A program made the position numbers and the translations under genes. The notes under the pieces are model-generated. The model was not told the DNA's origin. It made no database searches and saw only the letters and a list, made by a program, of their open reading frames with translations. Source: a virus (lineage: Duplodnaviria; Caudoviricetes). Taken from it: DNA of 64,000 bases. Location of the stretch: positions 28,157-92,156 of IMG/VR virus record IMGVR_UViG_3300032303_001195; one strand, written 5' to 3'. This document shows positions 1-59,981 of the stretch, piece after piece. How positions within the stretch are numbered: position 1 is the first letter of the stretch; each line of letters starts with the position of its first letter.

Positions 1-44
1 CTACCGTGACAGGGTAGTGCTCTAACCAACTGAGCTACAGAGCC
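1..44 (-). tRNA. tRNA-Asp(GTC), 5' part (3' end runs off the window)
   Basis: Reverse complement reads GGCTCTGTAGCTCAGTTGGTTAGAGCA-CTACC-CTGTCAC-GGTAG: canonical D-arm and anticodon stem-loop with GTC. Confidence 0.9.
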
Positions 45-58
45 ATTGTCCTATTGTA

Positions 59-220
59 TCAGGCATACTCCCGAATAGCAACCTGCTTGATTGCCCCACG
101 AGTCCTCTGACGGTTAGGTCGATTGTCGTGAGTGGTAGCCGCATTGGAACTACGCAGACCACGCATAGCAACAATGTATGCGGTGTTCTGAATCTTCTTG
201 GGTGCTGTCTTTTTCTTCAT
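59..220 (-). CDS. small basic hypothetical protein (53 aa, MKKKTAPKKIQNTAYIVAMRGLRSSNAA...), leaderless
   Basis: Hand translation; ATG lies 6 nt after a TAGTAT -10. Confidence 0.75.
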   Translation of the reverse strand: MKKKTAPKKIQNTAYIVAMRGLRSSNAATTHDNRPNRQRTRGAIKQVAIREYA

Positions 221-226
221 ATCTCA

Positions 227-248
227 ATACTAGCAGTGACCACTGACA
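227..248 (-). promoter_or_regulatory. RecA-NDp/PafBC-type promoter
   Basis: TGTCAGTG-N8-TAGTAT. Confidence 0.75.
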
Positions 249-312
249 TTGGAGGCATTTTTAGTAATATACTTAATAACATTCCGATAACGGATCGGGG
301 CGCCGCCCCCCC

Positions 313-441
313 CTAAAAGGGAGGTCGGTTCAGTAGTGCCTCATATTCGGCTTCCTTGTATTTCGTGTACAGGTACAGAATCACAAGGGTGTCGAACAGA
401 ATCACGCCCATCATTATGACGAACAGCCAAAATAGGTTCAT
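313..441 (-). CDS. small membrane protein (42 aa, MNLFWLFVIMMGVILFDTLVILYLY...)
   Basis: Hand translation; TAATG coupling to the upstream gene; one hydrophobic helix; stop abuts a GGCGCC element. Confidence 0.7.
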   Translation of the reverse strand: MNLFWLFVIMMGVILFDTLVILYLYTKYKEAEYEALLNRPPF

Positions 442-629
442 TAGTTCTCCTCGAAGTCATAGCAAGCGTTGATAAATACATTGCGTTGGAATCGCTCATT
501 GTCCTTAGCAAACATATCTGCGAAGTCATGAACAAGGTCAAGCATACGCTGTTCGTTACTGATTGGCATATCACCAATAAAATCAGCAAGAATGCTAGCG
601 GTTTCCACATAGTCTTTGCGTGTCATCAT
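441..629 (-). CDS. hypothetical phage protein (MTRKDY... type)
   Basis: ORF track; AAAGGA RBS and its own promoter upstream. Confidence 0.8.
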   Translation of the reverse strand: MMTRKDYVETASILADFIGDMPISNEQRMLDLVHDFADMFAKDNERFQRNVFINACYDFEEN

Positions 630-658
630 TTTAGTGTGTCCTTTTCTTTGTTGGTTTT

Positions 659-680
659 AGTTTACAGCAAGCCACCGACA
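659..680 (-). promoter_or_regulatory. RecA-NDp/PafBC-type promoter
   Basis: TGTCGGTG-N8-TAAACT. Confidence 0.75.
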
Positions 681-845
681 CTACGAACCGTAGACGGTCA
701 GCAGTGTGCGGTAGCCATTGGCACGACCCTCGCACCACGAAGCCATGCCTTCCATGCCAGCCTCACGGTACATGATTACATCAGCCTCGTTTTGCTCGGC
801 AAGCCACTCAAGCGATTCGACTGGGATAGTGATTGTGTTTTCCAT
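681..845 (-). CDS. hypothetical protein (54 aa, MENTITIPVES...)
   Basis: Start reassigned to ATG 845 after the conserved RBS ACGAAAGGAAAACT. Confidence 0.8.
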   Translation of the reverse strand: MENTITIPVESLEWLAEQNEADVIMYREAGMEGMASWCEGRANGYRTLLTVYGS

Positions 846-868
846 AGTTTTCCTTTCGTTGTATAACA

Positions 869-890
869 ACTGTATCAGTACCCACCGACA
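869..890 (-). promoter_or_regulatory. RecA-NDp/PafBC-type promoter
   Basis: TGTCGGTG-N8-TACAGT. Confidence 0.75.
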
Positions 891-952
891 TTGCAGGGCA
901 TTTACAGCGTGTTTCGTATAACGGTTTGATAACAGTCGGGGCGCCGCCCCTG

Positions 953-1174
953 CTAGTTGTAGCCCTCTACCCAAATATTTTCCTCTAACAGCATGTCCAC
1001 ATAGTCAGCGAAGCCACAGCGGTATGCGATTGGGTCACAGTTCTTGAGAATGTCTGCAGGGTAGAACTCTGAGTAGCCAATGGTCACAATGCCATAGCAA
1101 TCATTTAGATATGCGTCATAGTCATCTCGGGCTTGTTCTTCGGACAGGATTTCGTGCTTTGCGATTTCGTTCAT
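953..1174 (-). CDS. acidic hypothetical protein (73 aa), leaderless
   Basis: ORF track; ATG 6 nt after a TATAGT -10. Confidence 0.8.
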   Translation of the reverse strand: MNEIAKHEILSEEQARDDYDAYLNDCYGIVTIGYSEFYPADILKNCDPIAYRCGFADYVDMLLEENIWVEGYN

Positions 1175-1180
1175 ATAATG

Positions 1181-1202
1181 ACTATAACACTACCCACCGA
1201 CA
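1181..1202 (-). promoter_or_regulatory. RecA-NDp/PafBC-type promoter
   Basis: TGTCGGTG-N8-TATAGT. Confidence 0.75.
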
Positions 1203-1217
1203 GAGGTCGGCGCCCCC

Positions 1218-1430
1218 CTAATATCCATAGTCTTCGTCAGTACCCCAGCCAGCAGAGGCAAGAGCATCTGCATCCCACCAAGACTCGTCTGGCTCGTAGT
1301 CCTGAGACTCAAGAGAGTTGCCAGAGATGTCCCAATAGGCTTCGGTGTCCTCAACAGTCCACTCATTGCCGAGGTCGTCAAGGTAGGCGACAATCTCGTT
1401 ACCCTCACCAAAAATAGGCTCAAAAATCAT
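1218..1430 (-). CDS. highly acidic hypothetical protein (70 aa, ends DADALASAGWGTDEDYGY)
   Basis: ORF track; RBS ACGAAAGGATAACT. Confidence 0.8.
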   Translation of the reverse strand: MIFEPIFGEGNEIVAYLDDLGNEWTVEDTEAYWDISGNSLESQDYEPDESWWDADALASAGWGTDEDYGY

Positions 1431-1455
1431 TAGTTATCCTTTCGTTGTTATAACA

Positions 1456-1477
1456 AGAATAGCAGGGGGTACTGACA
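1456..1477 (-). promoter_or_regulatory. RecA-NDp/PafBC-type promoter
   Basis: TGTCAGTA-N8-TATTCT. Confidence 0.7.
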
Positions 1478-1518
1478 CTCCTCCGTAATTCACTTGGTAA
1501 GCGGATCGGCGCCGCCCC

Positions 1519-1611
1519 CTACCAGCGGAAGTCTTCCTGTTCGTCATACCATTCCTGGTAGACGTATTCGGTTCCACAGCCACAGCAGGGGCGGTCTTCA
1601 CATGTACACAT
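1519..1611 (-). CDS. Cys-rich micropeptide (30 aa, MCTCEDRPCCGCGTEY...)
   Basis: ATG 1611 follows RBS ACGAAAGG and its own promoter. Confidence 0.7.
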   Translation of the reverse strand: MCTCEDRPCCGCGTEYVYQEWYDEQEDFRW

Positions 1612-1638
1612 AGTGTGCCTTTCGTTTGGAGTGATAAA

Positions 1639-1660
1639 AGAATAGCAAGGGCTACCGACA
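1639..1660 (-). promoter_or_regulatory. RecA-NDp/PafBC-type promoter
   Basis: TGTCGGTA-N8-TATTCT. Confidence 0.7.
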
Positions 1661-1816
1661 CTACATGTTTCTAGTGTCAGCCTCAGCCACGATTTCCGCA
1701 TCAGGGAACACCTTGATACAGGTGGCACACAGTGCGACAGGGGTTTCTCGCAAGAAGCCAAGCTCAATAAGGTACACAGCGTCTCGGTGCTGGCAGAATT
1801 CACATTCGGGGTTCAT
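1661..1816 (-). CDS. CxxC..CxxC zinc-finger miniprotein (51 aa, MNPECEFC...LCATC...IVAEADTRNM)
   Basis: Hand translation; conserved RBS; paralogous to 2117-2287 and 3842-3988. Confidence 0.8.
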   Translation of the reverse strand: MNPECEFCQHRDAVYLIELGFLRETPVALCATCIKVFPDAEIVAEADTRNM

Positions 1817-1837
1817 AGTTTTCCTTTCGTTACCACT

Positions 1838-1859
1838 AGACTAGCATGACCCACCGACA
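1838..1859 (-). promoter_or_regulatory. RecA-NDp/PafBC-type promoter
   Basis: TGTCGGTG-N8-TAGTCT. Confidence 0.75.
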
Positions 1860-1977
1860 TTGGGGAAAATTTCCGAGGCGTTTTAATGCGCTTACGTAAA
1901 CTGATTTTGGAATGGTCGGGCGGCGCCGACCCCACCGACATTTGTCAAGCGACACGCCGATCGGGTTGACTTATTTT

Positions 1978-2109
1978 TCAGGGGCAGAAGGTCGCCCAAA
2001 ACAAAAGAATAAACCAATAGGCAGAGTACAAAATAGCAAAAGCCATACCAATGCGAACAACTGCCCTAGCGATACCACGAACAACATAGTAAGTCTTTGA
2101 GTGATTCAT
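1978..2109 (-). CDS. small membrane protein (43 aa, MNHSKTYYVVRG...)
   Basis: ATG 2109 after AGGAG RBS; hydrophobic C-terminal half. Confidence 0.7.
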   Translation of the reverse strand: MNHSKTYYVVRGIARAVVRIGMAFAILYSAYWFILLFWATFCP

Positions 2110-2116
2110 TATGCTC

Positions 2117-2287
2117 CTAGTCTGCAATCGGGAAGATATCAAGAATCGGGAAGGCAGTTTCCAATTCATCGCACACGATAGCATCGTGGCACTGTTGACA
2201 GACAGCGACAAAAGTCAGTTCGACAATTTCGGTGTCATACTCCAAGACTTCACGAGCCTCACGGTAGTCACAGATTTCACATTCCAT
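2117..2287 (-). CDS. CxxC..CxxC zinc-finger miniprotein (56 aa, MECEIC...VCQQC)
   Basis: Hand translation; conserved RBS ACGAAAGGAAAACT. Confidence 0.8.
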   Translation of the reverse strand: MECEICDYREAREVLEYDTEIVELTFVAVCQQCHDAIVCDELETAFPILDIFPIAD

Positions 2288-2312
2288 TAGTTTTCCTTTC
2301 GTTTACGTTTTG

Positions 2313-2334
2313 ATTCTAACAGCACCCACCGACA
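2313..2334 (-). promoter_or_regulatory. RecA-NDp/PafBC-type promoter
   Basis: TGTCGGTG-N8-TAGAAT. Confidence 0.75.
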
Positions 2335-2370
2335 TTCACATACGCGACACGCCGATAACCCAGAAAAAAG

Positions 2371-2401
2371 TTATCCACATCTTAAATAAAAGTTATCCAC
2401 A
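2371..2401 (+). promoter_or_regulatory. pair of perfect DnaA boxes
   Basis: TTATCCACA at 2371-2379 and 2393-2401. Confidence 0.75.
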
Positions 2402-2439
2402 GGGCGGCGCCGCCCCCTGCGACATTTGTCAAGTCCTGG

Positions 2440-2799
2440 CTAGGCGTTTCGCAAATATTCCATTGCCCTAGCGATGCGGTCTAAATCATCTTGGAACACG
2501 CCCAAGCCACGGTTACAGTTGTGGCAGATGTGTCCACGGAATGCACCTGTACCGTGGTCGTGGTCTACTACCCACACCGATGCGTTGCCACCTGTTCCCT
2601 TTAGTTCATCTTCTGACTTCAGGCAGATAGGGCAGGTGTGTCCCTGTTCGGGGTAGCCATACTCTTTACGCAGAGCACGACGCTCACTAGACAACTTACG
2701 ACCACAGTCACGGCACTCAGGTCGCAGGTACTTGCCACCAGAGGCAGGGGAGAATGAAGCGTGAGGTAGGGACTCTTGGCACTTGGAACAGGTTTTCAT
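2440..2799 (-). CDS. endonuclease VII-like (His-Me finger) nuclease with N-terminal Zn finger
   Basis: CSKC...[31 protein letters not shown] motif; leaderless ATG 2799 is 7 nt after a TAAAGT -10. Confidence 0.85.
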
Positions 2800-2806
2800 A
2801 GGTTTC

Positions 2807-2828
2807 ACTTTACGCTAGGGTACTGACA
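2807..2828 (-). promoter_or_regulatory. RecA-NDp/PafBC-type promoter
   Basis: TGTCAGTA-N8-TAAAGT. Confidence 0.7.
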
Positions 2829-2891
2829 TTGTGGTAAGCGACACGCCGATTACAGGAAAATTTTCAAGGCATTTTAATGGATCTACGTAAA

Positions 2892-2910
2892 TGTGGATAA
2901 GTTATCAACA
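2892..2910. promoter_or_regulatory. back-to-back DnaA boxes
   Basis: TGTGGATAA 2892-2900 (perfect, reverse) and TTATCAACA 2902-2910 (1 mismatch). Confidence 0.65.
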
Positions 2911-3004
2911 GGCGGCGCCGATTTTTTTGGAATACGCAAACCGACACGCCGTGTATTCCAAAATTGGCATATGCGAGAGATCCCGATTTGGGGAGGGTAG
3001 TCTG

Positions 3005-3142
3005 CTAACTAGCAAACTCGCCCTCTTCACGCATGATAGCGAAACGCTCGCTAATCAGGCAAGGCTTACAGATAAGCCATTCACCATGTGCGGACACATA
3101 GACAGTCTCTACAGACTTTTCACAAACTTCACAAATTTTCAT
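3005..3142 (-). CDS. CxxC-x17-CxxC zinc-finger miniprotein (45 aa, MKICEVC...LICKPC)
   Basis: Hand translation; RBS AGAAAGGAAAACT. Confidence 0.8.
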   Translation of the reverse strand: MKICEVCEKSVETVYVSAHGEWLICKPCLISERFAIMREEGEFAS

Positions 3143-3159
3143 TTTGAGTTTTCCTTTCT

Positions 3160-3315
3160 TTACTTGAGAGCGTCAAGCATACGCTCGAACGCCTCTTCGG
3201 TTAGTGACACGGTAGCCATGCCGATTACGAATGGGTAAGCCTCTGTGCGAGACTTGAGGTTGTACTTAGCGACACAAGCGTCAAGCACCTGATTCATCAT
3301 TTCTGATTTTTCCAT
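3160..3315 (-). CDS. hypothetical protein (51 aa, MEKSEMMNQVLDAC...SLTEEAFERMLDALK)
   Basis: Hand translation; RBS AGAAAGGT. Confidence 0.75.
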   Translation of the reverse strand: MEKSEMMNQVLDACVAKYNLKSRTEAYPFVIGMATVSLTEEAFERMLDALK

Positions 3316-3337
3316 TTTAGTTTTACCTTTCTTTAGC

Positions 3338-3426
3338 GAGTGAGACTTATTTGCTCTGAGACTTATTTGCTAGGCTCACCTTTCGGATTATTTGCTAGGC
3401 TCATTCTCTGAGGCTCATTCTCACTC
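3338..3426 (-). ncRNA. candidate structured 5' leader RNA with three copies of an internal-loop module
   Basis: Closing stem GAGUGAGA/UCUCACUC, two UGAGCCUAGCAAAUAA repeats around CC-GAAA-GG, plus a split third copy. Confidence 0.6.
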
Positions 3427-3451
3427 TGTGTAGTTTTTATCTTATGTCTTG

Positions 3452-3480
3452 AGACTATCAGACATTATCTGAAAAGTCAA
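3452..3480 (-). promoter_or_regulatory. sigma70/SigA-type promoter with upstream GACAC box
   Basis: TTGACT-N17-TAGTCT; CGACACGCCG at 3483-3492. Confidence 0.7.
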
Positions 3481-3511
3481 GCCGACACGCCGTGTTTGCG
3501 AAAAAAAGTTT

Positions 3512-3619
3512 TTATTTCTTTTCTGCCATGAATGCGACCATCAAGCCAAGCAATTCTTCCTGGCTCATGTCTTCCATGTCCTGAACACCTTCGGTGGTGA
3601 TTACCTTCATGAAACCCAT
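3512..3619 (-). CDS. micropeptide (35 aa, MGFMKVITTEGVQDMEDMSQEELLGL...)
   Basis: Hand translation; RBS GAAAGGAG and its own promoter. Confidence 0.75.
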   Translation of the reverse strand: MGFMKVITTEGVQDMEDMSQEELLGLMVAFMAEKK

Positions 3620-3645
3620 TTGGTTTCTCCTTTCTATCTGTAAAC

Positions 3646-3667
3646 AGACTAACAGTACCCACCGACA
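3646..3667 (-). promoter_or_regulatory. RecA-NDp/PafBC-type promoter
   Basis: TGTCGGTG-N8-TAGTCT. Confidence 0.75.
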
Positions 3668-3724
3668 TTCGACCCCCTGTTTTTCCATCTAGGGGAAATT
3701 TTTAGGTAAACATAAGGTAAATTC

Positions 3725-3745
3725 TTATCCACAAAGTTATCCACA
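3725..3745 (+). promoter_or_regulatory. pair of perfect DnaA boxes
   Basis: TTATCCACA at 3725-3733 and 3737-3745. Confidence 0.75.
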
Positions 3746-3841
3746 GGGGGGCGCCGCCCCCACCGACATTTGTCAAGTCGACACGCCGTGTTTGTCAAAA
3801 TTAGTTTGTGGTCGATCCACGAGCCACCAACAGGCGACACC

Positions 3842-3988
3842 CTAGTTTCGGGTATCAGCCTCAGCGACTATGTAGTGAGGCGTAGTCATGCGAGACTCGC
3901 AACGCACACACACATAGGTAGGCATGGACTCCATCATCATCATGATTTCGAGAGTAGCCTCATAGTATTCACAGAATGTACAGGTCAT
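3842..3988 (-). CDS. CxxC..CxxC zinc-finger miniprotein (48 aa, MTCTFC...VCVRC...IVAEADTRN)
   Basis: Hand translation; conserved RBS; same C-terminal IVAEADTRN as 1661-1816. Confidence 0.8.
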   Translation of the reverse strand: MTCTFCEYYEATLEIMMMMESMPTYVCVRCESRMTTPHYIVAEADTRN

Positions 3989-4011
3989 AGTTTTCCTTTC
4001 TTTGTATTTAC

Positions 4012-4033
4012 AGTATGACATAGGGTACTGACA
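4012..4033 (-). promoter_or_regulatory. RecA-NDp/PafBC-type promoter (variant -10)
   Basis: TGTCAGTA-N8-CATACT with extended TG. Confidence 0.6.
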
Positions 4034-4234
4034 CTACAGTACGGTCACCTTGTTTCCAAGGGTAGCGTAGGCAGTAGTGCCATTAGTAAAAGTAACCTGA
4101 CAGGTAGTACCGTTCAGTCCTTTCACGTTAGCGATAACACCTGTGTAGTGAAACACAGGTCCAAACGGATAAGGCTTGTTGCTGAACGCAACACGCTTTC
4201 CGATTAGGGATTTGATTTTTTGAGTGTAAGTCAT
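4034..4234 (-). CDS. basic beta-rich hypothetical protein (66 aa)
   Basis: ORF track; RBS GAAAGGAAG. Confidence 0.8.
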   Translation of the reverse strand: MTYTQKIKSLIGKRVAFSNKPYPFGPVFHYTGVIANVKGLNGTTCQVTFTNGTTAYATLGNKVTVL

Positions 4235-4256
4235 GATTGACTTCCTTTCTTTTTAG

Positions 4257-4316
4257 GAGGGATTTATTTGCTAGGCTCATTCCCGATTGGGACTTATTTG
4301 CTAGGCTCACTCCCTC
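4257..4316 (-). ncRNA. candidate structured 5' leader RNA with two copies of the internal-loop module
   Basis: GAGGGA/UCCCUC closing stem; two UGAGCCUAGCAAAUAA repeats (4264-4279, 4294-4309) around a UCCC-AAUC-GGGA hairpin. Confidence 0.6.
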
Positions 4317-4329
4317 GTGACTTACTTAC

Positions 4330-4351
4330 AGTATCGCAGTACCCACCGACA
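4330..4351 (-). promoter_or_regulatory. RecA-NDp/PafBC-type promoter (variant -10)
   Basis: TGTCGGTG-N8-GATACT with extended TG. Confidence 0.6.
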
Positions 4352-4409
4352 TTGGAGGGCATTTTAGTAGGGGTTTCACCCTATTTTTAGGTTAACGTAA
4401 GTATAAAGT

Positions 4410-4430
4410 TCATCCACAGAGTTATCCACA
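4410..4430 (+). promoter_or_regulatory. pair of DnaA boxes
   Basis: TCATCCACA 4410-4418 (1 mismatch) and TTATCCACA 4422-4430. Confidence 0.7.
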
Positions 4431-4473
4431 GGGCGGCGCCGCCGCCTCAAACATTTGTCAAGGCGACACGCCG

Positions 4474-4578
4474 TTAGGCGTTCATTTTCTTTTTGGTCAG
4501 AGCTAGCAACTCTTCGAATTCCAATTCAGTCATGTACTCACCCTTAGCAATGAGCATGAGTTCTTGATAGCGTGACAT
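4474..4578 (-). CDS. micropeptide (34 aa, MSRYQELMLIAKGEY...)
   Basis: Start reassigned to ATG 4578 after RBS ACGAAAGGT and its own promoter. Confidence 0.75.
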   Translation of the reverse strand: MSRYQELMLIAKGEYMTELEFEELLALTKKKMNA

Positions 4579-4603
4579 TAGTTTACCTTTCGTTAGTGTT
4601 TTG

Positions 4604-4625
4604 ATTTTAGCAGGTGGTACTGACA
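4604..4625 (-). promoter_or_regulatory. RecA-NDp/PafBC-type promoter
   Basis: TGTCAGTA-N8-TAAAAT. Confidence 0.7.
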
Positions 4626-4703
4626 CTAGAGTCCGAATATCTTTACCAAGATAACGAACACGAGGGTTAGTACCGATACTGTGAATGAGACGATAGCGAG
4701 CAT
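4626..4703 (-). CDS. hydrophobic micropeptide (25 aa, MLAIVSFTVSVLTLVFVILVKIFGL)
   Basis: Hand translation; RBS GAAAGGT; fills the slot between two promoters exactly. Confidence 0.65.
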   Translation of the reverse strand: MLAIVSFTVSVLTLVFVILVKIFGL

Positions 4704-4734
4704 TTGAGTTATTACCTTTCTTTGTTATGACTAT

Positions 4735-4756
4735 AGTCAATCACTAACCACCGACA
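4735..4756 (-). promoter_or_regulatory. degenerate RecA-NDp-type promoter (first of the array)
   Basis: TGTCGGTG-N8-TTGACT; an alternative TATAGT lies 5 nt further on. Confidence 0.45.
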
Positions 4757-4927
4757 TTAGCAATGCGACACGCCGATAAGTGAAAAAATAAAAAAAAGAA
4801 AGTTTTGGGGGTGTGTAGTGGTGTGCTCACTATAGTCGACCCCCCCATAGGCTATTTTTTCTGTATCGTTCATCTTTAAAAAATATTCAGATTTTCATCA
4901 AATCCAAAATAAAAAATTTTTCAGATT

Positions 4928-5041
4928 TTAGCCATACACAGATTTAAGAATCAGGATCACCAGGGTGTACGATAGGACAATAGCCACAGCACCTGCGAGG
5001 ATCAATCCGATATTTTTCAGGGCAGACAAAATCTTCGTCAT
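4928..5041 (-). CDS. small membrane protein (37 aa, MTKILSALKNIGLILAG...)
   Basis: Hand translation; ATGA coupling with the upstream gene. Confidence 0.6.
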   Translation of the reverse strand: MTKILSALKNIGLILAGAVAIVLSYTLVILILKSVYG

Positions 5042-5211
5042 GCTGTGATTGTTTCGGGGGTACGGTTAACAAGTCCATAATGCAAAGCCCATATAGTAAT
5101 AAGCTTGTATGAAACCTTCTGCTCTTTGCTGATAGCACGAACACTCTTGGTTTCTAGCTCTTTAGCGAGCCAATCTTTGTTTTCATAGTTTTTTACTTTG
5201 ACTGGATCCAT
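5038..5211 (-). CDS. small helix-turn-helix protein (57 aa, NYENKDWLAKELETKSVRAISKEQKVSYKLITIW)
   Basis: Hand translation; RBS AAGGAGAG; same pattern as 59823-59981. Confidence 0.75.
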   Translation of the reverse strand: MDPVKVKNYENKDWLAKELETKSVRAISKEQKVSYKLITIWALHYGLVNRTPETITA

Positions 5212-5573: not shown

Positions 5574-5977
5574 ATATCAAGTATAACACTTCGGATGGTT
5601 TATTTTTCGAGGGTATACAACAGCCAAAGGCTGTCTTGATCAAACACACATAGTGATAATTACTCTTGATCAAACATAAGAAATCCCCCTATACTAATAT
5701 AAGGGGAAATCTATTTGGGGGTTTGCTGGTTTCCGATTTGTTAATCAAACCTGAATGGCATGACTGGGGTCTTATCCAGGATATCACAAAAATCTCATAT
5801 CAGAGTAGCTCCGCTATCATACATATTTGTCTATTTGGATGTTTCATCTGTTTGGACATAGTGTATGGGGTACTTCTCGCCGCCGATTTTTACCGCCGAA
5901 CAATAGGAGCTTAATTAGTTATATGTTATAAACAGGGTGTGGATAACTTTATAAAATACCTGTATAATTATACTATT

Positions 5978-6909: not shown

Positions 6910-6910
<1 letters not shown>
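6524..6910 (+). CDS. virion structural protein, BppU-like beta-sandwich
   Basis: V(V)RGDT start and FDLQVT...G.I.V..DVT end; precedes the fibre gene. Confidence 0.6.
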
Positions 6911-11882
<4,972 letters not shown>

Positions 11883-11883
<1 letters not shown>

Positions 11884-59822: not shown

Positions 59823-59981
59823 ATGATGGCTGCTAAACTGTATACTAATGAGATGTGGTTGCGTAAGCGATTCCACCTTGACCGCAAGACTCCTGAAGAG
59901 ATTGCAAAAGAGTGTGGCGTATCTGTTGAAACAATCTATGTCTACCTCGCTAAATTTGGATTAAGGAAATCAAAACGTTGA
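59823..59981 (+). CDS. small HTH protein (52 aa, LYTNEMWLRKRF..TPEEIAKECGVSVETIYVYL)
   Basis: Hand translation; GGAGG RBS. Confidence 0.85.
   Translation: MMAAKLYTNEMWLRKRFHLDRKTPEEIAKECGVSVETIYVYLAKFGLRKSKR

Follow-up and report, generated by a model that had tools for sequence, protein, structure and literature searches.

The DNA analyzed here is a 64-kb window (G000:28157-92156) within a 92,156-bp IMG/VR virus contig that is rated 85% complete. Its plus strand carries tail fibre, portal, protease, DnaE polymerase and terminase-like genes, and its minus strand carries, at positions 59-4703, the in-window part of a mini-gene array of about 18 open reading frames (ORFs) with 25-119 codons for amino acids, mostly orphans and one of them an endonuclease VII gene. 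In the array as a whole there are about 30 small genes, the proteins are 25-120 amino acids (aa) long and nearly all of them are orphans, and DUF932 and Gp88-family genes are located upstream of the window; a PHROG scan of ten mini-proteins returned only the endonuclease VII and unnamed families. A GC palindrome centred on GGCGCC follows most array genes, and these palindromes, together with the promoters and short genes, indicate that the array is a chain of terminator-promoter-gene units. The predicted promoter sites in the window, in which a TGTC-type box is separated by 8 nucleotides (nt) from a hexamer, are the following, with one promoter of another type placed last.

227-248, minus strand: promoter TGTCAGTG-N8-TAGTAT; leaderless, the ATG of the 53-aa gene 59-220 beginning 6 nt past the hexamer
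659-680, minus strand: promoter TGTCGGTG-N8-TAAACT; leader of 23 nt, gene 441-629
869-890, minus strand: promoter TGTCGGTG-N8-TACAGT; leader of 17 nt with the ribosome-binding site ACGAAAGGAAAAC, gene 681-845
1181-1202, minus strand: promoter TGTCGGTG-N8-TATAGT; leaderless, gene 953-1174
1456-1477, minus strand: promoter TGTCAGTA-N8-TATTCT; leader of 19 nt, gene 1218-1430
1639-1660, minus strand: promoter TGTCGGTA-N8-TATTCT; leader of 21 nt, gene 1519-1611
1838-1859, minus strand: promoter TGTCGGTG-N8-TAGTCT; leader of 15 nt, zinc-ribbon mini-gene 1661-1816
2313-2334, minus strand: promoter TGTCGGTG-N8-TAGAAT; GGCGTGTCG box 10 nt upstream, leader of 19 nt, gene 2117-2287
2807-2828, minus strand: promoter TGTCAGTA-N8-TAAAGT; GGCGTGTCG box upstream, ATG of the endonuclease VII gene (2440-2799) after 7 nt
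3646-3667, minus strand: promoter TGTCGGTG-N8-TAGTCT; leader of 20 nt, gene 3512-3619
4012-4033, minus strand: promoter TGTCAGTA-N8-CATACT; C as the first base of the hexamer, leader of 17 nt, zinc-ribbon mini-gene 3842-3988
4330-4351, minus strand: promoter TGTCGGTG-N8-GATACT; long leader with GAGCCTAGCAAATAA repeats, gene 4034-4234
4604-4625, minus strand: promoter TGTCAGTA-N8-TAAAAT; leader of 19 nt, gene 4474-4578
4735-4756, minus strand: degenerate site, TGTCGGTG with an upstream GGCGTGTCG box; TTGACT at the hexamer position and TATAGT 4 nt further on
3452-3480, minus strand: canonical sigma-70-type promoter TTGACT-N17-TAGTCT, just downstream of a GGCGTGTCG box

The strict motif, TGTCRGTR-N8-TAnnnT, has 11 exact matches in the window (starting at 227, 659, 869, 1181, 1456, 1639, 1838, 2313, 2807, 3646 and 4604), all of them on the minus strand, compared with a mean of 0.19 and a maximum of 3 in shuffled sequences, and no site was found on the plus strand with its structural and replication genes. 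These results reproduce most of the first-pass annotation of this DNA, which had described a 14-site array made up of 11 TAnnnT sites at these starts, two nATACT sites and one degenerate site, had counted three leaderless cases (here with a hexamer-to-ATG gap of 6 nt at sites 227 and 1181 and of 7 nt at site 2807), and had seen no sites in front of structural or replication genes. The sites stood, and what had been understated was their extent: a scan of the rest of the contig, as that annotation had suggested, revealed that the array continues past the window to G000:23265 and spans 9.7 kb, with 15 sites by the strict pattern and about 21 by a relaxed one, all of them on the minus strand. Collagen-like tail-fibre repeats aside, TGTCGGTGGG is the most repeated 10-mer of the contig. 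It is doubtful that the degenerate site at 4735-4756 functions as a promoter. The promoter at 3452-3480 is the only clear canonical -35/-10 promoter in the window, and it indicates that the array also contains ordinary promoters of that type.

To describe the promoters at the level of single positions, 41 sites from the contig and two close relatives were aligned. Several positions that the search pattern did not fix were strongly conserved, including A at -30 (38/41 sites) and G at -21 and -20 (34/41 and 35/41, respectively). An extended -10 was apparent from T at -15 (35/41) and G at -14 (37/41), and within the hexamer T at -12 and A at -9 were present in 31 and 32 of the 41 sites. The seventh base after the hexamer, designated +1, is A in 38/41 sites, and in 11 of the 41 an ATG begins exactly there. 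From -35 to -31 no base reached 50% or more, hence there is no -35 element. In the larger set of 177 distinct sites from 19 loci, -20 is G in 92%, -19 is T in 56% and +1 is A in 86%, the distance between box and hexamer is exactly 8 nt, and 38 sites have an ATG at a gap of 6 nt past the hexamer as compared with none at a gap of 5 and one at a gap of 7. Phasing as sharp as this sets the register of the -10, points to a start at the conserved A and suggests that these mRNAs are leaderless, in agreement with the argument of the first-pass annotation that leaderless ATGs confirm the register. Leaderless mRNAs are common in actinobacteria. The remaining genes of the contig have leaders that are mostly 15-23 nt long and end in ACGAAAGGAAAAC-type ribosome-binding sites. 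Judged by these regularities, the TGTCRGTR-N8-TAnnnT sites look like real promoters, and the profile suggests that the start is the A located 7 nt downstream of the hexamer.

The array is not peculiar to this contig, as the scan of related phages that the first-pass annotation had also suggested made clear. IMG/VR was scanned for the leaderless form TGTCGGTG-N8-TAnnnT-N6-ATG, and at least 119 loci were found, at least 17 of them with one-strand arrays of 3-12 strict sites. Whole-record counts for 15 array-bearing contigs gave 7-25 strict sites each, co-oriented, with controls near zero. In all, co-oriented arrays are present in at least 16 related uncultured phages, whose DnaE, where present, is 78-98% identical to that of this phage. 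Across the clade the spacer and the inner bases of the hexamer vary and TGTCRGTGG and its distance to the hexamer are constant. Near-consensus TATAAT hexamers are common in these kin, and a few of their promoters read TTGACA-N1-TGTCGGTG-N8-TAnnnT, so that the box falls within the 17-nt spacer of a complete -35/-10 pair. Three sites recur at both ends of G422, a complete genome of 124.5 kb (464/1442/2635 and 116487/117465/118658), from which it follows that the array runs into an 8.5-kb direct terminal repeat. Palindromes of the form CGAAC-N4-GTTCG, which match the actinobacterial LexA box, were seen inside the arrays of three relatives (L088 at 3006, 4083 and 6877; L104 at 2814; L109 at 3262), and there are none in the array of this contig.

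The sequence and spacing of the phage motif equal those of a published host motif, that of the regulator PafBC. The in vivo PafBC consensus is tGTCgg(N10)tA(N3)T, with the box at -28 to -23, no -35 element and a GTC triplet that is read by PafB, and the promoters of this type are unused by RNA polymerase (RNAP)-SigA alone in vitro (PMC8635444). Streptomyces is among the actinobacteria in which the RecA-NDp promoter is conserved (PMC5087735, PMC6789036). All of the phage sites have TGTCRG, and the distance from it to TAnnnT is exactly 10 nt in the 11 window, 15 contig and 177 clade sites, with about 0 in the reversed control. The first-pass annotation had named the motif as the actinobacterial RecA-NDp/PafBC promoter type and had proposed that a site profile be compared with it; the comparison upholds the identification, since the -26 box and the spacing match both the published consensus (PMC8635444) and the motif enriched in host genomes. 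SiwR, a second mycobacterial activator that acts at -26, was considered as the reader and rejected, its site being a GGA triplet (PMC10693628).

The enrichment was apparent in three actinobacterial genomes, from Streptomyces, Arthrobacter and Actinosynnema, in which the general pattern has 44, 9 and 32 matches, respectively, compared with 0, 1 and 0 for the reversed control, and all three (3/3) have an HTH_PafC gene. A 22-nt version of the phage promoter, TGTCGGTGGGTACTGnTAnnnT, was found at 10 places, each a single match and none in a phage-like contig, among 185,579 species genomes. Three of these are actinobacterial, one each in Streptomyces, Arthrobacter and Actinosynnema, where TGTCGGTGGGTACTGnTAnnnT is intergenic and aimed at a gene, and in two of these three genes the ATG is 7 nt past the hexamer. 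The Actinosynnema sites share the extension of the phage box, with G at -20 in 20/32 and GGTC in 14/32 (counted by eye). In Streptomyces sp. NBC_00727 (L024 2780-4014) TGTCGGTGGGTACTGnTAnnnT precedes a leaderless IS605 OrfB/TnpB gene, and in Arthrobacter sp. KNU40 (L025 5161-6412) it precedes a DUF2188 gene and a CAP12/Pycsar-type TIR-domain gene. By the look of these neighbours, PafBC-type promoters seem to serve defence-like and mobile genes too.

The first-pass annotation had left room for a WYL-domain mimic encoded by the phage itself, and this part of its proposal was not borne out. No WYL domain was found in the contig or in 15 relatives, two of them complete; in the contig nothing scored above cut-off for the HTH_PafC, HTH_11 and Sigma70_r2/r4 families; Sigma70_r2 was absent from the contig and from seven relatives; and a fused PafBC from Arthrobacter used as a query had no match in the contig and four kin, both complete genomes included, in a search that had no phage positive control. 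With no WYL, PafBC or sigma gene found in the phage, the fallback of a WYL mimic is removed and the host's PafBC is left as the simplest reader.

We therefore favour, with moderate confidence, the reading that these are PafBC-class promoters which host PafBC reads by sigma adaptation. The terminator-promoter-gene units would be transcribed by host RNAP with its housekeeping sigma factor. Each promoter would consist of a normal -10 (TAnnnT, often with an extended TG) and of (A)ATGTCRGTGG at -30 to -20 in place of a -35 element, this box corresponding to the -26 element of actinobacterial PafBC-dependent (RecA-NDp) promoters. Host PafBC, once activated by single-stranded DNA, would insert between sigma region 4 and the box, which is the step termed sigma adaptation, and transcription would then begin at the A 7 nt downstream of the hexamer to give mRNAs that are either leaderless or carry leaders of 15-23 nt. 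Lacking a sigma or PafBC-like gene, the phage would depend on a host factor for about 30 small genes. The single-stranded DNA could be supplied by processed genome ends, by breakdown of host DNA or by replication, and with a trigger from these sources the genes might be delayed-early or middle rather than immediate-early. What we only infer is that PafBC binds, that single-stranded DNA triggers it in the infected cell, that the genes are early, and what they do.

Several observations weigh against host PafBC as the reader. The Actinomycetota sample comprised 151 genomes, the counts being given for the published ones (146 for the motif and 144 for HTH_PafC), with the unpublished genomes G008, G025, G055, G089, G095, G127 and G155 excluded. 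Only 15 of the 146 had at least 8 motif matches together with no more than 4 control matches, HTH_PafC was present in 95 of the 144 (about two thirds) and was not found in the smallest sampled genomes (1.3-1.6 Mb), and in many genomes that bear HTH_PafC the strict motif is unenriched. The PafBC reading would fail if the host of the phage belongs to a streamlined lineage without PafBC. No enrichment of the motif was found in four Streptomyces phages (BillNye, Coruscant, Wakanda and Yaboi), hence the motif was not inherited from the wider family Stanwilliamsviridae. The many extended -10s, and the full -35s of some kin, mean that firing without PafBC is possible. The reading further requires some route, not an obvious one, by which a lytic phage switches PafBC on as soon as infection begins. 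Lastly, a phage-encoded helix-turn-helix (HTH) protein whose gene heads the array, and whose recognition helix is conserved, could be the true reader.

5038-5211, minus strand: 57-aa three-helix HTH gene at the upstream head of the array, without a TGTC-type promoter of its own

This gene may encode a phage regulator of the array, and an HTH protein of this kind is encoded at the head of all arrays that were sampled sufficiently. Homologues are located just upstream of the first array promoter in G409, G411, G412, G414, G415, G421 and G422, with a weaker one in G417, and G410 also has one. These homologues (57-68 aa) are 34-65% identical to the protein of this phage, and their predicted third helix, VSYKLI(N)VW, is nearly invariant. 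The structural model is a three-helix HTH with a mean predicted local distance difference test (pLDDT) score of 79 and a weak likeness to Sigma70_r4_2, HTH_23 and GerE. We consider it rather unlikely, though well worth weighing, that a phage protein, this HTH being the likeliest, reads TGTCRGTGG in place of host PafBC. It might do so as an activator that substitutes for the -35 contact, in the manner of MotA at the middle promoters of T4, or as a repressor that sits in the promoter spacer and shuts the array off. The box would in that case resemble the PafBC motif through mimicry, through competition with PafBC or by chance. The synteny at array heads in at least eight relatives favours such a protein, as does the fact that a near-invariant third helix fits a DNA target that is invariant across the clade, which the box is; the HTH fold and its weak sigma-region likeness count on the same side, and at those kin promoters where the box is inside a full -35/-10 spacer a bound protein would more likely repress. 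Set against this, chance is very unlikely to have produced a 9-10-base match to a host motif with the spacing exact, small HTH repressors have operators that are repeated or palindromic whereas this box is single and asymmetric, a fold search yielded generic HTH matches only, and no homologue was detected at E <= 0.01 in G003 or in G418, which is 99% complete. A further difficulty is that the HTH could equally read the GGCGTGTCG box, an equally good target that occurs clade-wide in 46 distinct copies in 12/18 arrays, placed either 9-10 nt ahead of TGTCRGTG or 2 nt ahead of a TTGACA -35, and that is probably the site of a second regulator. Its copies in the window are the following.

1950-1959, minus strand: CGGCGTGTCG box, then TTGACA-AA-TGTCGGTG without a -10, a GC palindrome being there instead
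2345-2354, minus strand: CGGCGTGTCG box, 10 nt upstream of the 2313-2334 promoter
2839-2848, minus strand: CGGCGTGTCG box, 10 nt upstream of the 2807-2828 promoter
2942-2951, minus strand: CGGCGTGTCG box, then TTGCGT
3483-3492, minus strand: CGGCGTGTCG box, 2 nt upstream of the -35 of the canonical promoter
3779-3788, minus strand: CGGCGTGTCG box, then TTGACA-AA-TGTCGGTG without a -10
4464-4473, minus strand: CGGCGTGTCG box, then TTGACA, a GC palindrome and DnaA-box-like sites
4766-4775, minus strand: CGGCGTGTCG box, 9 nt upstream of the degenerate site

Upstream of the terminase-like genes there is another small HTH gene (window 59823-59981, plus strand; 52 aa); it has a weak Sigma70_r4/HTH_11 likeness and is distantly similar to the HTH at the head of the array.

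On the minus strand at 1919-1940 and 3747-3768, TTGACA-AA-TGTCGGTGGGG runs into a GC palindrome at the position where a -10 would be expected. These two boxes without a promoter are possibly decoys or recombination scars, judging from their layout, and they bear on a different explanation, namely that the housekeeping sigma factor uses the array promoters constitutively, from a -10 or an extended -10 and with no need of an activator, the box being either a PafBC decoy, which soaks up PafBC and so blunts the host's DNA-damage and defence response, or a junction for cassette recombination. We regard this as improbable. In its favour, besides the two boxes, are the TG at -15/-14 in 35-37 of 41 sites and the TATAAT-like hexamers of the kin, as well as the fact that actinobacterial promoters commonly lack a -35. 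The density of sites is also sponge-like, at about 1 per 0.6 kb in the array versus 1 per 170-570 kb in the three host-type genomes, and the Arthrobacter 22-mer in front of the DUF2188 and TIR-domain pair hints at defence genes under PafBC control. What speaks against it is that a box-hexamer distance of exactly 8 nt in 177 sites would be needless for a decoy or a recombination site, and that RNAP-SigA alone does not use PafBC promoters in vitro (PMC8635444). The full -35/-10 variants of the kin, together with the boxes that are followed by palindromes, are the reason that we retain a repressor or decoy role as a possible one alongside the preferred reading by host PafBC.

Other elements of the array were noted in the course of the analysis. 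Four mini-proteins of 45-56 aa (3842-3988, 3005-3142, 2117-2287 and 1661-1816, minus strand) are paralogous zinc ribbons of the CxxC...CxxC type, and two of the four share an AEADTRN tail. The DnaA-box consensus TGTGGATAA has 7 copies versus 0.92 expected, six of them in the array and mostly paired beside GC palindromes. The repeat GAGCCTAGCAAATAA, of which no copies are expected by chance, occurs twice in each of two long 5' leaders on the minus strand (3363-3402 and 4264-4308, ahead of genes 3160-3315 and 4034-4234, respectively) and is also present in the relatives G003 and G411. A conserved non-coding element at window positions ~4800-4930 (minus strand) consists of AAATCTGAA(A/T)A repeats followed by AAAGATG(T/A)A(T/C)GATAC and TATAGTGAGCACAC, and in most relatives examined it is located between the HTH and membrane-peptide genes and the first array promoter. 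The TGTGGATAA copies, and features of the contig other than the array, are as follows.

2371-2401, 2892-2900, 3725-3745, 4422-4430 and 5938-5946 of the window: TGTGGATAA copies
6910-11883 of the window, plus strand: 1657-aa tail-fibre protein, largely collagen-like GxT/GxQ triplets and the source of most other repeated 10-mers in the contig
G000:13378-13709, minus strand, outside the window: transfer-messenger RNA (tmRNA) with the tag ADKSSYALAA
G000:28047-28200, minus strand: adjacent transfer RNA (tRNA) genes, tRNA-Asn and tRNA-Asp, reaching window positions 1-44, the last tRNA gene being cut by the window start

The contig encodes the tmRNA and three tRNAs, a WhiB-family protein, ThyX, ribonucleotide reductase and glycosyltransferases. 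No near-identical DNA was found among cultured phages, and its closest cultured kin are Streptomyces phages of the family Stanwilliamsviridae, with DnaE about 56% and the portal protein about 47% identical. Its G+C content is about 38% (46-49% within the array), far below that of typical actinobacteria, and this, in combination with host searches that returned no host, is what could be said for a non-actinobacterial host, or for the box being a -35-like element of an alternative host sigma factor, in either of which cases the likeness to PafBC would be irrelevant. We find this explanation very improbable. WhiB is encoded in 6/16 related records in addition to the contig, all six of them >45% complete and both complete genomes included, and among the control genomes the WhiB profile had matches in Corynebacterium only. 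Together with the Gp88-family gene, the leaderless starts and the kinship to phages that infect Streptomyces, WhiB indicates an actinobacterial host despite the G+C content; the Streptomyces phage relatives are themselves far lower in G+C than their hosts. An alternative sigma factor is further contradicted by the hexamer, which is the housekeeping-type TAnnnT, and by the 10-nt gap, which is too short for a -35/-10 pair of the sigma-70 family. Two other approaches gave no pointer to a particular host: in a protein atlas the WhiB was placed only among viral clusters, and the phage tmRNA, when compared with 401 actinobacterial genomes, matched only the conserved 3' end, in 11/401.

With host PafBC as the preferred reader, we tentatively speculate, on the basis of the sequences, on a wider scenario in which this lytic clade has no transcription factors of its own for its small genes. 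Host PafBC, set off by the damage signal that infection itself raises, would switch on about 30 of them, the 20-25 high-affinity sites per genome copy would titrate PafBC away from repair and defence genes, and the HTH and the GGCGTGTCG box would tune or end the phase. In mycobacteria and related bacteria PafBC is the principal regulator of the DNA-damage response, and it is known only as a switch for host defence and repair; a link between pafBC and resistance to mycobacteriophage is attributed to Rafique et al. 2025 as cited in PMC12848934. No paper describing phage promoter arrays of this type was found among the titles and abstracts that searches of the PafBC/phage, RecA-NDp and sigma adaptation/phage literature returned. 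If the PafBC reading is true, no virus would have been seen to exploit sigma adaptation before this clade, the mechanism could be studied on a natural collection of about 180 PafBC-type promoters that are diverse in sequence, and pafBC status is predicted to alter phage susceptibility. The compact promoters, with their graded strengths, could also serve as damage-inducible parts in actinobacterial genetics. New in this analysis are the profile of the clade, the phasing of the start sites, the count of the motif in host genomes themselves, the finding of no WYL, PafBC-like or sigma gene in the relatives searched, two complete genomes included, the location in the terminal repeat of G422, the conserved HTH gene heading the arrays, and the GGCGTGTCG box.

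The closest known counterparts of the array promoters are the PafBC-dependent (RecA-NDp, recA P1-type) promoters of the hosts (PMC8635444, PMC6789036, PMC11804915). Both have the TGTCRG box, followed by GTG and often by G, both have a 10-nt gap to a housekeeping TAnnnT, mostly without a -35, and the start predicted for the phage sites, about 7 nt past the hexamer, corresponds to that of the host promoters. They differ in arrangement, as the host sites are scattered (1 per 170-570 kb in three genomes) in front of repair genes, whereas the phage has 15-25 co-oriented sites in about 10 kb in front of tiny orphan genes, and the phage adds the upstream GGCGTGTCG box and A at -30/-29. The dependence of the phage sites on PafBC is predicted from their sequence.

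The T4 middle promoters, with a MotA box at -30, a sigma-70 -10 and sigma appropriation by MotA/AsiA, resemble the array promoters in that both keep the host -10 and replace the -35 with the box of an adaptor. T4, however, encodes its own adaptor proteins, whereas only a small uncharacterized HTH was found in the phage described here and the box is the host's own; moreover, the MotA box TGCTTtA is centred at -30, as opposed to TGTCRGTGG at -28 to -20. No sigma-like or WYL protein that might act as a T4-type activator was found, in searches that did not address the MotA and AsiA families by name.

The takeover module of Bacillus phage SPO1 consists of dozens of very small genes near or in the terminal redundancy, with promoters and terminators of their own, that are transcribed by the host polymerase. 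The array fits it in layout, with small genes that have individual promoters and terminators, and in G422 it runs into the 8.5-kb direct terminal repeat. The early promoters of SPO1 are canonical -35/-10 promoters, in contrast to most of the array promoters, which lack a -35, and no homologues of SPO1 takeover genes were found among the array genes as far as tested. In temperate phages, antirepressors under the host SOS repressor LexA couple phage genes to a DNA-damage regulator, and the array would likewise tie phage genes to a DNA-damage regulator of the host. LexA, however, is a repressor that governs prophage induction, whereas PafBC would activate the array, in a phage that looks lytic.

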